A stretch of DNA of 39,768 nucleotides from a virus. A model generated the notes under the pieces. That model was not told the DNA's origin. It saw only the letters and a list, made by a program, of their open reading frames with translations, and did not search any database. Both the position numbers and the translations under genes were made by a program. Within the stretch, counting starts at the first letter, position 1, and every line of letters starts with the position of its first letter. Shown piece by piece: positions 8,394 through 12,017 of this stretch. The DNA lies in IMG/VR virus record IMGVR_UViG_3300031760_006869, positions 1-39,768 of that record; one strand, given 5' to 3'.

Positions 8394-8402
8394 ATGATGT
8401 TT

Positions 8403-8561
8403 ATGGATTATTTAGATTTTTTACAAAAAGTTAATGATTTGTTTTTTAAGATCATTGGAGACAATTCAATCACTATAAATTTACAAGTTTTCATCAATGG
8501 CAAGAGGCATGAGTTAGATCTTCCTGATGAAAAGGAATTGATTGAAGATTATGTACAATAA
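8403..8561 (+). CDS. 52-aa hypothetical protein in the lysis module
   Basis: Hand-translated MDYLDFLQKVNDLFFKIIG...EDYVQ. Fills the gap between endolysin and holin. Confidence 0.55.
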   Translation: MDYLDFLQKVNDLFFKIIGDNSITINLQVFINGKRHELDLPDEKELIEDYVQ

Positions 8562-8579
8562 TGAATGAGGTGTTAAAAC

Positions 8580-8912
8580 ATGAAAAGCTTAAAAATACCA
8601 TCTAGGATTGTAAAAATTATTGTTACAATCGTATTTGCAATTTTGACTACCATAGCCACTATGACTCCTGAAGGTTTGGCAGCTTATTTGCCACAGGAAT
8701 TTGCCGGATGTGCTGCTCTTATAATTATCCTTGCAGGGGCAATAGTGGATCAGTACGCTGAAGAGAAGAGAGTTGTACGTGCTGAAGAGTTAGCGATACA
8801 GCAGTCTGCTACTGTTCTTGGTGCTCCTTTGGATGGTGGCATTGTTTTGAATGATGAGTATATAGCTCCAGATGATTCAGAAATTGAGGATGTTTCTGAT
8901 GATGGATGTTAA
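8580..8912 (+). CDS. Putative holin
   Basis: Two hydrophobic helices and an acidic C-tail. GAGGTG RBS. Position in the lysis cassette. Confidence 0.65.
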   Translation: MKSLKIPSRIVKIIVTIVFAILTTIATMTPEGLAAYLPQEFAGCAALIIILAGAIVDQYAEEKRVVRAEELAIQQSATVLGAPLDGGIVLNDEYIAPDDSEIEDVSDDGC

Positions 8913-8956
8913 AGGACCAAAAATAACCCTATTTTTGTGGAAAAGTTAGTTTTTGT

Positions 8957-9000
8957 GAGGCCCTAAAACTTGATTGTTTTATGGTCTCTTATTTTTTTTT
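8957..9000 (+). terminator. Hairpin plus T-tract ending the late operon
   Basis: gaggcc..taaaac/gtttta..ggtctc stem followed by a 9-T run. Confidence 0.55.
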
Positions 9001-9041
9001 AAAATAATTGTATTACATTGCTTGTATTACAAATCGGCAGT

Positions 9042-9298
9042 TTAATAAGTGATTAAGGCCATAAATAAATAGTAGGAGAGGCAAATTTTGCTTATATTAA
9101 AATTTTGATGTATGGTTTGGTTTTTTTATCATTTCATTTTTGTTACTCTTCTTGATAATTTTGTATTAATTTATTATTTAATTGATTATTGATTTGCCTT
9201 TCCTGCCTTAACAATCACCTTATTAAGTCAACAACTATTTGTATGTATCAAAGGATTAGGAGGGAGTCCCATTTTTTGTGGATTCCCTCCTTTTTTTT
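9042..9298 (+). ncRNA. Candidate structured small RNA A with 3' hairpin and U-tract
   Basis: 15-bp stem 9073-9087/9191-9205 with three G:U pairs, outer stems 9042-9058/9206-9226, and a 12-bp hairpin 9258-9291 followed by a T-run. Confidence 0.45.
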
Positions 9299-9400
9299 AT
9301 TTTTCAAATGCTCTCGCTTAATCTTTATATGCTTCTAAGAATAAAAATAATATTACTTATTTTCTAATAAGTAAAGTGTTTTATGGTGTAGATAATTTCT

Positions 9401-9448
9401 GGGTTCATTATCGATTAGTACTTGATAATGAATCCTTCTTTTTTTTTT
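9401..9448 (+). terminator. 14-bp hairpin plus T-tract
   Basis: gggttcattatcga/ttgataatgaatcc (two G:U pairs) followed by a 10-T run. Confidence 0.55.
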
Positions 9449-9624
9449 AAAAATTACGGTTTAATGAACTTAATTAAACAGAAGGAAGCCCGTAAAGTGT
9501 TTGAGGATATATTACGTGAAAATAATATAAAATTATAAAAAATTTTGTATTTTTTTATATTTTTTCTTCATTTTTTAGTATTTTTTTAAGTTTTTTTTAC
9601 TATTTTTGGGTAAAAAACATTAAA

Positions 9625-9635
9625 TTTATATTATA
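9625..9635 (+). promoter_or_regulatory. Archaeal TATA-box candidate for structured RNA B
   Basis: TTTATATTATA lies about 25-30 nt upstream of the first helix (9653-9658), with an A-rich stretch upstream. Confidence 0.4.
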
Positions 9636-9652
9636 CTTATCACATAATATTA

Positions 9653-10071
9653 TTTGACTTAGTTCTCGGTAAGTCAAAATTCTTGGGTATAGTCAATGTT
9701 GGGTTTTAATTGACTACTCCTCGGTGCTGTTTCTGCATACTTGTACTGTTCTTGTATTGCTTGTGGCCACTCCTAGGAATGTGGTCACATTAAACAGCTT
9801 TAAATAATCTACTTTTTTTCATTAAATTATTTCTTTGCATATGCTCTTTTGAAAACATTTAAATCTTATTTTATTCAATATTTATACTGAGGAGTGTTCT
9901 TTGTAATTGTTATTGATATGGCCCTAACCCAAGTCATATTAAAAAAATAAATACTAAATATGGTATGTGTTTTTTTAATTAAAGCTAGGCTTGGCTATAT
10001 CCAGGGATTCTTACCGAGAACTAAGCGTTCCTTGTAGTCAAGGCCTTTCTATAGGAGGGATTGGCCATGAC
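9653..10071 (+). ncRNA. Candidate large structured RNA B / cis-regulatory leader with multi-stem fold and possible pseudoknot
   Basis: Five nested helices whose only non-Watson-Crick pairs are G:U on the + strand, plus a hairpin occluding the downstream RBS and start codon (see findings). Confidence 0.6.
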
Positions 10072-10141
10072 CTTAATCTTAGAAGGTATCTTCCATATTT
10101 TGGTTGGTATTTTTTTCATAATTATGGGAATCTTTTTTTAG
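10067..10141 (+). CDS. 24-aa hydrophobic peptide MTLILEGIFHILVGIFFIIMGIFF (speculative)
   Basis: GGAGG at 10054-10058 lies 8 nt before the ATG, and both sit inside a hairpin. The ORF could also be a T-rich shadow ORF. Confidence 0.35.
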   Translation: MTLILEGIFHILVGIFFIIMGIFF

Positions 10142-10451
10142 ATTTTCATACTTGATTAAGTCTATTCTTTAGTTACTAGGGATTCGAGTTTTTTATTTAG
10201 TTCACTTACTTTTTATTAATTTTTCTCGTAGTAATGATTGTTTGGAATGCTCCTCTTTTACTAGGAACTATTTTTTTCATTATTTATAATTTTTTCACTT
10301 TTTTTCTTTTTTTAGACAAGTTTCGTAAAATTTTAATTTGTTCGTATAATATGAGATTGTTTAGGTTTCTAATTTTATATACTAGTTTTTACAGAATAAT
10401 AATCACTCTTTTTTAAATATTAAAAAAACATAACCAAGCCAGAAAATATCC

Positions 10452-10476
10452 ACTTGCTTATTTGGAATAAGCAAGT
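10452..10476. promoter_or_regulatory. Perfect palindrome ACTTGCTTATT-TGG-AATAAGCAAGT (attP core or operator candidate)
   Basis: 11-bp perfect arms, about 165 bp upstream of the recombinase start. Confidence 0.35.
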
Positions 10477-10640
10477 AAACAATAGTAGGCTTTGTAAATC
10501 AGAACAAAAACAAACCAAACATTCATAGGCTAAACATTGAAAACTAGGTAAACAAAATCAAGCTTTATTAGTTTTCACATGCTCTATACAACAAAGGCAA
10601 AAATATTTAAAAAAGATAAAAAAATATGAAGTGATTAAAA

Positions 10641-12017
10641 ATGAAGAGAAACAATTTTTGCCAAACCGACAAGCTACTCCATCAAAGGGTAAAAGACTTA
10701 TCAAAGTCAAGCCAAAAGGAATACAATTATGTCTTCGATGACATATACCACCTGACAGGAAGAACACCTACAGAACTAGTAAAGATTGGACTTCAGGAAC
10801 AAGATCCATACGCAACCAACGAAAAGGGAGAGAAAACATACGAATACCTACCATTCAGAACCATAACCAGTATCCATGAGGAATATGAGGAATACCTGCG
10901 AAAAAATAGCAACATAAAGGAATCAACCATCAAAGGAAGATTGCTATACTTCAGAAGCTTATTCAATAAGCATAGGATAGAACTTCCAGACATGCCAATA
11001 TTCCACATCAAAAAACCACGTACAAGATTAAAGGAACTGCCTTTAGACAGTGAATTGAAACTAGCTATTGAATTGTCAACAGAACCAGTGCAACCTTTAT
11101 TATTCCTGACACCAAGGGTAACAGGCCTTCGTTTAAGTGATATAGAAACCTTCACCTATAACACAGTATTGGAAGCAACAAAACTTTATCATGACGGAAC
11201 ACTTGAAGACCTATTGAGCAAGAACCCTTATGAGATCATACCACGTTTTGAATTAGACCCTGTGAAAACAGAAAAGCAAGGTAACCTTTGCATAACATTT
11301 GCCACTCCAGAATGGACATATTATTTCTTCAGATACACCAAGTGGAGACAAAGGAAATATGAGGAAGCTGTAGATGAGCTTGAAAGATTGAAGCATGATG
11401 TGAGGGCAAAGAACAAGCATCGCAAAAACCGTATTGAAAAAAGGATACAGAAACTGAAAATCACTCCAGAATCCCCATTGTTCATTTCAAATTTATCCAG
11501 GGTAACCGGCTTGACAAAGGGAAGCATGGGAAGATTATTCTATGACATGAATGAGAAACTAATGTATGAATTAGGGCCTGATTATAATTATAAGAATGAG
11601 GATAACAATTACGGCCGTTTCAGAGCACATAACCTTCGTAAGCTATTCAGTACAACATGCAGGGTAAATATGGTTAAAATAAATGTTGAAAATCGTAACG
11701 ATAAGTTCAGGGAATTAGACATAGTCTCATTGTTCACAGGACATACTCCTCCAAACATGAGCAACAGTGAAGTTTATGATGCTGTTGAGGAGGATAGTTT
11801 TGATAGTGAATTGAGACAAGTGTATACTGCTCTTGTACCTTTCAACACAATCTATCGTGAGCAGTATGATTTGGAGCAGGAAAGACAAAGGGCTTTAGAA
11901 CTTCAGAAAGAGAATGAAAGAATCAAAAAGGATATTGATTCTGCAGTGAATCAGAAAATAAGTGAAGTGTTTAACGAGTATGGCATTGAGGAAATACTTA
12001 AAAAACATGGGCTATAA
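10641..12017 (+). CDS. int: Tyrosine recombinase / integrase
   Basis: Catalytic signature TGLRLSD (R)...RAHNLRK (HxxR)...TGH...VY. N-terminal SAM-like core-binding region. Confidence 0.9.
   Translation: MKRNNFCQTDKLLHQRVKDLSKSSQKEYNYVFDDIYHLTGRTPTELVKIGLQEQDPYATNEKGEKTYEYLPFRTITSIHEEYEEYLRKNSNIKESTIKGRLLYFRSLFNKHRIELPDMPIFHIKKPRTRLKELPLDSELKLAIELSTEPVQPLLFLTPRVTGLRLSDIETFTYNTVLEATKLYHDGTLEDLLSKNPYEIIPRFELDPVKTEKQGNLCITFATPEWTYYFFRYTKWRQRKYEEAVDELERLKHDVRAKNKHRKNRIEKRIQKLKITPESPLFISNLSRVTGLTKGSMGRLFYDMNEKLMYELGPDYNYKNEDNNYGRFRAHNLRKLFSTTCRVNMVKINVENRNDKFRELDIVSLFTGHTPPNMSNSEVYDAVEEDSFDSELRQVYTALVPFNTIYREQYDLEQERQRALELQKENERIKKDIDSAVNQKISEVFNEYGIEEILKKHGL

Follow-up and report, generated by a model that had tools for sequence, protein, structure and literature searches.

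Bacterial type I toxin mRNAs are the closest described counterparts of the locus examined here. Those of tisB, dinQ and zorO are activated by processing, and hok mRNA is held by a 5'-3' lock with metastable 5' hairpins. Same-strand RNA control is also found in phages: the c4 RNA of P1/P7 and the CI RNA of P4, of ~70-80 nt, pair through short boxes within the same operon transcript, are released by processing and control antirepressor or replication genes. Type I systems on record come from a few bacterial phyla only, with no archaeal example (PMC12390103), and a 2010 survey of such systems likewise lists bacterial phyla only. Some belong to temperate viruses: those of C. difficile phiCD630-1 stabilise the prophage (PMC7699646), and hokW-sokW of Sp5 is prophage-borne (PMC8621323). 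In Methanosarcina mazei, chromosomal, stress-linked RNAs for small proteins have antisense partners (bioRxiv 10.1101/2025.10.28.685009). The Methanobrevibacter smithii virus MSTV1 has an integrase-side variable region with toxin-antitoxin and defence genes that are expressed in lysogens; this cargo consists of protein genes (HEPN toxin, VapB-like, MazE-like), with no structured RNA reported (PMC11375127). Our reading of the literature turned up no methanogen virus for which a structured RNA cassette is described.

The stretch of DNA that we analysed, referred to as the window, is one IMG/VR virus record of 39.8 kb with all its large genes on the + strand. Among its products are a tail-tip protein that has a transglutaminase-like domain, a lysin bearing a pseudomurein-binding repeat, and a Mu-type portal. 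A Methanobrevibacter MAG (G001) holds an integrated copy whose integrase is 98% identical to that of the window, and the public runs that contain the 9298-10328 stretch originate from bovine and sheep gut. Judged from these sequences, the window is a temperate tailed virus of rumen Methanobrevibacter. Two side observations concern its gene content. The 110-aa gene at 8580-8912, 3' of the lysin gene, is present in RNA contigs of the sheep gut library X15, and its protein is identical across several assemblies; it matches no Pfam and no PADLOC family. In L010 and L013-L017, whose integrases are 61-65% identical and which adjoin host genes, a Cdc6/Orc1-like gene lies directly 3' of the integrase gene, where the window's virus has an unrelated 196-aa gene.

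The locus of interest is a structured element at 9653-10025, followed by a small ORF for a putative membrane peptide. Type I toxin mRNAs such as those of hok/sok, tisB/istR-1, dinQ/agrB and zorO/orzO (see also PMC3567139 and PMC3919570) share several traits with it. They specify a hydrophobic peptide of very small size, their long leader is strongly folded through long-range pairing and can form alternative local hairpins at the 5' end, they are located on mobile elements, and they have a shorter RNA form with a more open start region, which here is a computed property. The differences are that no sequence or family match links the cassette to those mRNAs, that its leader of ~410 nt is several times as long as theirs, that the ORF lies outside the closing helix, and that the candidate inhibitory arm shares the strand, and possibly the transcript, of the ORF. 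The host, moreover, is archaeal, and both toxicity and a separate antitoxin RNA are putative here. As with phiCD630-1 and hokW-sokW, a small RNA-plus-peptide cassette forms the accessory cargo of a temperate virus, but those systems have mapped antisense RNAs and tested toxins where the present one has candidates. The c4 and CI RNAs resemble the arrangement proposed below in their same-transcript pairing and release by processing, and have no sequence likeness to the element. The M. mazei RNAs are similar in being methanogen RNAs for small membrane-associated proteins under RNA-level control, but they are without a large long-range fold and have no viral setting. MSTV1 is a virus of the same kind, from the same host genus, and also has a variable cargo spot near its integrase, thought to serve addiction and defence. 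Finally, fimS-type promoter switches and fold-back miniature transposons also place inverted repeats around a few hundred AT-rich bases beside a small gene; the element differs from them in its one-sided G:U pairs, its ~68 bp of pairing, the single orientation seen, and the lack of duplications and other copies. By analogy, the combination of a structured RNA with a putative 24-residue membrane peptide is a layout known from bacterial RNA-controlled toxin genes and not yet described in archaea or archaeal viruses.

The optional cassette and its surroundings

The element lies in a cargo cassette, a setting that the original prediction had missed, with the following features and neighbours.

9298-10328, + strand: optional cargo cassette of ~1.03 kb that holds the whole element and is absent in relatives
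9401-9448, + strand: hairpin with a T10 run, terminator-like, in the left part of the cassette
9543-9607, + strand: cluster of six T-runs, low-complexity, a possible + strand insulator
9626-9633, + strand: TATA-like box TTTATATT after an A-rich stretch, recognised by eye
10110-10313, + strand: nine T5-T7 runs, candidate archaeal terminators; there is no A-run there, hence no such signal on the - strand
10282-10289, - strand: putative TATA-like box TTATAAAT after an A-rich stretch; an antisense RNA would start near 10257
10447-10481, outside the element: attP core palindrome with 10-bp perfect arms and a 3-nt centre
10641-12017, + strand: tyrosine integrase of 458 aa, whose relatives carry PF00589 and are named Methanobrevibacter integrases

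In L023, L077, L078, L079, L083, L084 and the G001 provirus, window position ~9297 is joined straight to ~10329, and a 12-nt linker alone replaces the cassette in these near-identical viruses. A different, unrelated insert of 165 nt occupies its place in L082 (98-264). Eight close relatives, L082 counted, are thus without the cassette, and six of them encode an integrase of identical protein sequence. The DNA run X13 contains the cassette as well as joints that skip it. The contigs that we found via neighbouring proteins and that span the gap are without it, and the distant viruses L025 and L026 have no comparable gap. Only one other contig, Logan contig SRR9036511, apparently has the cassette, judged by its identical gene spacing; no gene is called in the stretch there. 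In the manner of morons and other cargo, the cassette comes and goes among near-identical genomes and possesses its own TATA-like box (9626-9633) and T-runs (10110-10313). As no target duplication was found at its borders, the 9297/10329 site looks like one of cassette exchange, not of transposition.

This hot spot is located between a conserved lysis-side terminator, a hairpin plus T8 at 9258-9298, and attP. In the integrated state it becomes the far end of the provirus, and in bacterial phages morons and lysogeny cargo are typically found at that end. The integrated sequence starts at 10458 in G001, L080 and L081, and at its right end the G001 provirus agrees with the window as far as 10471, which places the crossover overlap at ~10458-10471 (~14 nt), ~430 nt to the right of the element. 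The element itself was rejected as attP, since integrated relatives break at this overlap, within the 10447-10481 palindrome.

Several other observations were made around the cassette. The motif TTTTCA(A/C)ATGCTCT is found at 9300-9313, the left edge of the cassette, at 10571-10584, ~60 nt before the integrase gene, and at ~125-140 of L082, where the alternative cargo starts; it may be a start-site or a recombination signal. The T-run cluster at 9543-9607 matches many unrelated T-rich stretches of the host. Many public assemblies, among them L021-L024 and L073-L076, stop ~100-130 nt after the 110-aa gene (~9010-9045) or ~200 nt before the integrase gene (~10420-10440), and these breaks fit strain-level branching between integrated and free forms, or between forms with and without cargo.

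Fold of the element

The original prediction depicted 9653-10025 as a large, G:U-rich RNA closed by long-range helices. Its pairings were all found, and the structure comprises the following parts.

9653-9678, + strand: local 9-bp palindrome or hairpin TTGACT...AGTCAA, a rival of P1; expected 0.06 times per window
9658-9673, + strand: 5' arm of P1 (partner 10010-10025)
9678-9713, + strand: 5' arms of P2 and of its G:U-rich extension (partner 9975-10009)
9715-9732, + strand: 5' arms of P3 and P4 (partners 9886-9896 and 9792-9798) in the RNAfold minimum free energy (MFE) structure
9762-9789, + strand: hairpin of 9 bp in the MFE structure
9913-9942, + strand: hairpin in the MFE structure, with a C-rich loop complementary to 9699-9705 and 9682-9688
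9941-9976, strand not assigned: A7-hairpin-T7, like a two-way terminator, within the element
9975-10025, + strand: 3' arms of the P2 extension, P2 and P1

P1 has 16 bp and no mismatch, and its arms are the sole two copies of that 16-mer in the window with 3 mismatches allowed. P2 was predicted as 17 bp with 4 G:U pairs (9680-9696/9991-10007) and is lengthened by RNAfold to 19 bp (9678-9696/9991-10009). P3 forms 11 bp with 2 G:U pairs at 9716-9726/9885-9895, and the MFE structure adopts the register 9715-9725/9886-9896 instead. Both anticipated hairpins belong to the MFE structure, and the local 5' hairpin is present. The long-range pairing amounts to a nearly unbroken helix of ~68 bp, 9658-9725 with 9886-10025.

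RNAfold gives -117.8 kcal/mol for the + strand of 9653-10030 versus -70.4 +/- 4.9 for its shuffles (z -9.7, 0/100), and -92.5 kcal/mol (z -7.5) for the - strand. After G+C correction, the element is the strongest folding outlier among the 313 tiles of the window (z -3.85; next -2.68). Its 5' half alone does not fold unusually (z -1.7), so the signal resides in the match between the two halves. The second-strongest outlier (z -2.7), 8947-9300, is a separate case. It is flanked by two hairpin-plus-T-run terminators and, unlike the element, is kept at 83-92% in L077-L084 and G001, which makes a covariation test possible there.

The nature of the imperfect pairs is informative. In a decaying DNA inverted repeat, A.C oppositions are expected as often as G:U. 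The long-range helix comprises 57 Watson-Crick pairs, 11 G:U, no A.C and one G.A, and the local hairpins 27 Watson-Crick pairs, 5 G:U and no A.C, making 84 Watson-Crick and 16 G:U pairs without any A.C in the named helices. Such a split of 16 to 0 has a chance of ~0.002 even if a two-fold strand bias in mutation is allowed. The claim that deviations are one-sided is thus borne out, and it points to selection on the + strand RNA. T and G are in excess on the + strand, and a strand-biased C>T pressure could give some of the G:U excess without selection. We conclude that 9653-10025 is probably a real, selected + strand RNA structure.

As to the proposed pseudoknot, loop 9926-9932 exactly complements 9699-9705, and the same heptamer, shifted by one base, also complements 9682-9688. 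In the MFE structure, 9698-9713 is already engaged with 9975-9990, where the stem is weak and G:U-rich; the loop contact would therefore compete with the stem, as an alternative or a seed, rather than add to it. A second TTGACT/AGTCAA palindrome was noticed at 9691-9715, each arrangement occurring once in the window. With the first, it forms four half-sites (9654-9677 and 9691-9715) spaced by 18-19 nt right after the TATA-like box, and these palindromes could serve as a repressor operator as well as RNA hairpins.

Searches for relatives of the element gave no homologue. At gathering score, Rfam 15, which includes large phage-borne RNAs, has no match in the window, and at E up to 10 over 8900-10650 there are chance-level matches only, none on the + strand within 9653-10025; the element thus falls in no Rfam family. 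No homologue was detected by blastn against GenBank phages. In IMG/VR, the exact 16-mer gave five one-arm chance matches in unrelated contexts, and transition-tolerant patterns of the 3' and 5' arms and a back-translated peptide pattern gave none, as did the 3'-arm and peptide patterns in JGI metagenomes. BLAST against 314 Methanobacteriaceae genomes and the host MAG returned AT-rich low-complexity matches only. A number of identities were considered and rejected. No tRNA or tmRNA was found; a retron, a DGR or the guide RNA of an IS element is discounted by an empty Rfam result and by the lack of a partner enzyme gene nearby. The inverted repeats recall a miniature inverted-repeat transposon, but neither 9657/10026 nor the borders of the cassette show a target duplication. 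A multicopy transposon does not fit one copy in the window and none in G001 or the 314 genomes. The stretch 10195-10325, considered as a decayed tandem duplicate of the ORF, showed T-rich likeness only, and a trans partner RNA from 9340-9450 was dismissed because duplex energy is not meaningful at such lengths. A sigma-70 promoter scan is inapplicable, the host being archaeal.

RNA contigs and the small ORF

Apart from the sample that is the likely source, the 1-kb stretch is represented, by at least half of its sampled words, in eleven DNA runs of ten studies; the DNA runs X2-X14 contain 40-93% of the words. Contigs of the element are also present in three gut metatranscriptome libraries from three studies (X15 from sheep, X16 bovine, and X17; X18-X20, with small shares, are left out of this count), as assembled contigs that carry no strand and no reliable level, from a type of library that can contain DNA.

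9657-9889, no strand: X15 RNA contig of depth 3.4, with 11 other letters
9899-10255, no strand: second X15 contig
9921-10179, no strand: X16 contig
9922-10153, no strand: X17 contig

The two X15 depths, 3.4 and 33, are unusable for ranking RNA levels. The start of the first contig at 9657 coincides with the start predicted from the upstream TATA box, one base before P1. As originally proposed, this box precedes the element: by eye, TTTATATT lies 24-31 nt before 9657, with its centre ~26 nt before. The left edge at 9921/9922 is common to two studies, X16 and X17, is no loose end and is crossed by a DNA contig of X13, which is a weak hint that it is a genuine end of an RNA. This edge coincides with the junction of arm and loop in hairpin 9913-9942, whose loop matches the 5' arm. 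The sequence 9871-10179 is letter-identical in contigs of X13, X16 and X17, from three studies. In X16 and X17, the flanks 8400-9270 and 10314-11000 are covered by low-complexity pieces only, and we counted them neither way. The X15 variant breaks two + strand T7 runs, at 9973 and 10111-10114, and none of its listed differences (five of nine) falls in 9975-10025. The element is likely transcribed, as had been predicted. The contigs represent mostly its 3' half plus the ORF, however, and not the single species of 370-420 nt that had been envisaged.

Downstream of the fold, two features define a candidate gene.

10037-10071, + strand: hairpin whose loop contains AGGAGG and whose 4-bp stem takes in part of the start codon
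10067-10141, + strand: 24-codon ORF (stop at 10139-10141) for a hydrophobic peptide with one predicted membrane helix

AGGAGG (10053-10058) precedes the ATG by 8 nt, and the ORF starts 41 nt after P1. It is a candidate gene for a hydrophobic peptide of fewer than 60 aa, equipped with predicted translation signals of its own. The peptide matches nothing in Pfam below E 0.8 and nothing in PADLOC, and it matches no known toxin family. The frame is intact in the X15 variant, where three changes are visible, one synonymous for Ile and two within one codon (Phe>Ile); these changes are compatible with a coding function, in a sample too small for proof. By composition, an open frame of 24 codons in T-rich DNA is not unusual, with an estimated chance of ~0.17.

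Candidate mechanism and rival explanations

We tentatively favour the possibility that the cassette encodes a small membrane peptide under RNA control and works like a type I toxin mRNA, the element being the RNA core of optional cargo between the lysis-side terminator and attP. A + strand transcript would start near 9657 from the TATA-like box at 9626-9633, and its first 70 nt would pair over ~68 bp (P1, P2 and P3, with many G:U pairs) with 9886-10025, just upstream of the ribosome site and the ORF. The big fold would shape the start region, either as a leader or as a partner RNA that accumulates separately. As long as the 5' arm holds 9991-10025, hairpin 10037-10071 would shut over the start codon. 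If the 5' part were lost, as through cleavage of the hairpin loop near 9921/9922, then 9991-10025 might pair with 10027-10041 and the start region would open. The 3' arm has three rival partners, and such a cut would take away two of them. The 5' part could act in cis, within one transcript, or as a separate RNA, the X15 halves being separate contigs. The cassette would then likely serve provirus retention or the exclusion of rivals.

To open 10050-10081, transcripts starting at 9657 need a computed 12.7-15.0 kcal/mol and those starting at 9922 need 8.8-9.6, so that the start region of the shorter form is easier to open by 4-5 kcal/mol in silico. This logic of a switch activated by processing comes from folding predictions only, and several points count against the type I-like reading. 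With a 5' end at 9899, like that of the X15 contig, the fragment is closed again (14.0 kcal/mol), because 9915-9923 can also hold 9993-10001. The ribosome site is mostly in a hairpin loop, with an opening cost of ~4 kcal/mol in every model, and its sequestration would therefore be modest. T7 runs on the + strand at 9813-9819, 9970-9976, 10110-10116 and 10133-10139, with further T-runs to 10313, should hinder the archaeal polymerase. The contigs are strandless, and the abundant RNA, whose + strand origin we infer, could thus be antisense. Unlike in hok, the ORF lies outside the big fold. Lastly, as no homologue was found, neither covariation nor conservation of the peptide lends support.

It is tempting to speculate further that this is the first archaeal RNA-controlled toxic-peptide (type I-like) addiction module. 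Candidates for its RNA antitoxin are the ~68 bp of same-strand complementarity between 9658-9725 and 9886-10025 and an RNA from the putative antisense promoter at 10282-10289. In the form that we have in mind, the antitoxin would be the 5' part of the same-strand RNA, clamping the toxin leader through the 68-bp G:U-rich helix seeded by the loop-to-arm contact, and a cut in the loop at 9921/9922 would arm the toxin mRNA. We consider this specific proposal unlikely.

The original prediction left the choice between an unannotated ncRNA and a leader. The one-sided G:U pairs, the rejection of transposon or att arms and the presence in RNA libraries support that prediction; a leader fits better than a free-standing ncRNA, as a candidate reading only. 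A free-standing structured ncRNA, in which the 24-codon frame would be a by-product of T-rich sequence, is possible though on the unlikely side. It could regulate host or viral mRNAs through its C-rich loop, or act as a decoy for a host factor. The fold and the G:U evidence speak for it as strongly as for a type I-like mRNA, the length of the ORF is insignificant by composition, the peptide is without a family match, and no gene was called in the stretch on the one other contig with the cassette. Several observations are less readily accommodated, namely the strong AGGAGG correctly spaced before the ATG, the constant inclusion of the ORF in RNA contigs of the 3' half, and the structured + strand region that runs on through the ORF. 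With no Rfam match even at E up to 10, the mechanism of such an RNA would also be unnamed.

A cis-antisense pair is improbable in our view, and it would be a variant of the type I-like reading, not its opposite, since it would itself fit a type I layout. In that case, the abundant RNA at 9921-10255 would be a - strand transcript from the box at 10282-10289, lying opposite the ORF, repressing a rarer + strand mRNA and ending after the T7 run read at 9947-9941. The - strand does have a well-formed A-rich stretch and TATA-like box and is free of T-runs from 10420 to 9947, where the + strand has many, and the right end of the X15 contig, 10255, is only a few nt away from where the antisense RNA is predicted to start (~10257). 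The fold of 9921-10180 argues otherwise, being unusual on the + strand (z -4.0, 0/200 shuffles) but not on the - strand (z -1.9, 9/200). The left contig ends also lie 20-40 nt past the T-run, and two left ends differ by no more than 1 nt, against 92 nt for the right ends of the three RNA contigs, a pattern that weakly suggests a 5' end on the left.

An element acting as DNA is still less probable. It might be an invertible promoter segment, bounded by the 16-bp repeats, whose inner TATA-like box (9882-9887) would drive the ORF in one orientation; it might also be a miniature transposon of the fold-back type or a set of repressor operator palindromes. The perfect 16-bp inverted repeat does enclose 336 bp with a TATA-like box facing the ORF, the virus has a DNA-inversion switch elsewhere, two TTGACT/AGTCAA palindromes directly follow the TATA box, and the surrounding cassette is an indel. 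Nevertheless, all 16 non-Watson-Crick pairs are G:U on one strand, and the ~68 bp of pairing go far beyond what a recombinase site would plausibly span. A target-site duplication is absent both from 9657/10026 and from the borders of the cassette, and there is no second copy in the window, the host MAG or the 314 Methanobacteriaceae genomes. The repeats resemble neither the tail-fibre inversion sites nor attP, and the X13, X15, X16 and X17 contigs all have the orientation of the window, although contigs drop rare forms. The reading of the arms as transposon ends or att sites can accordingly be discarded, there being no duplication and no other copies, and attP being located elsewhere. As for a young hairpin-rich spacer or a transcription insulator between late genes and integrase, with no function of its own, the 1.7-kb gap full of hairpins and T-runs and the dispensability of the cassette would suit it, but it is highly improbable given one-sided G:U pairs unexpected without selection on RNA, the letter identity of 9871-10179 across three studies, an own promoter-like box and the presence in RNA libraries.

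The cassette is dispensable, centred on an RNA and present in RNA libraries of several gut samples. Near-identical natural viruses with and without it offer a ready comparison for the role of RNA-level cargo in a methanogen provirus, be it in host physiology, in retention or in keeping other viruses out. Methane emission by livestock is a further reason for interest in rumen Methanobrevibacter and the viruses that infect them. If the peptide proves toxic and gated by RNA, it might also be put to use in methanogen genetics as a compact means of counter-selection, a use that type I systems have had in C. difficile (PMC7699646).
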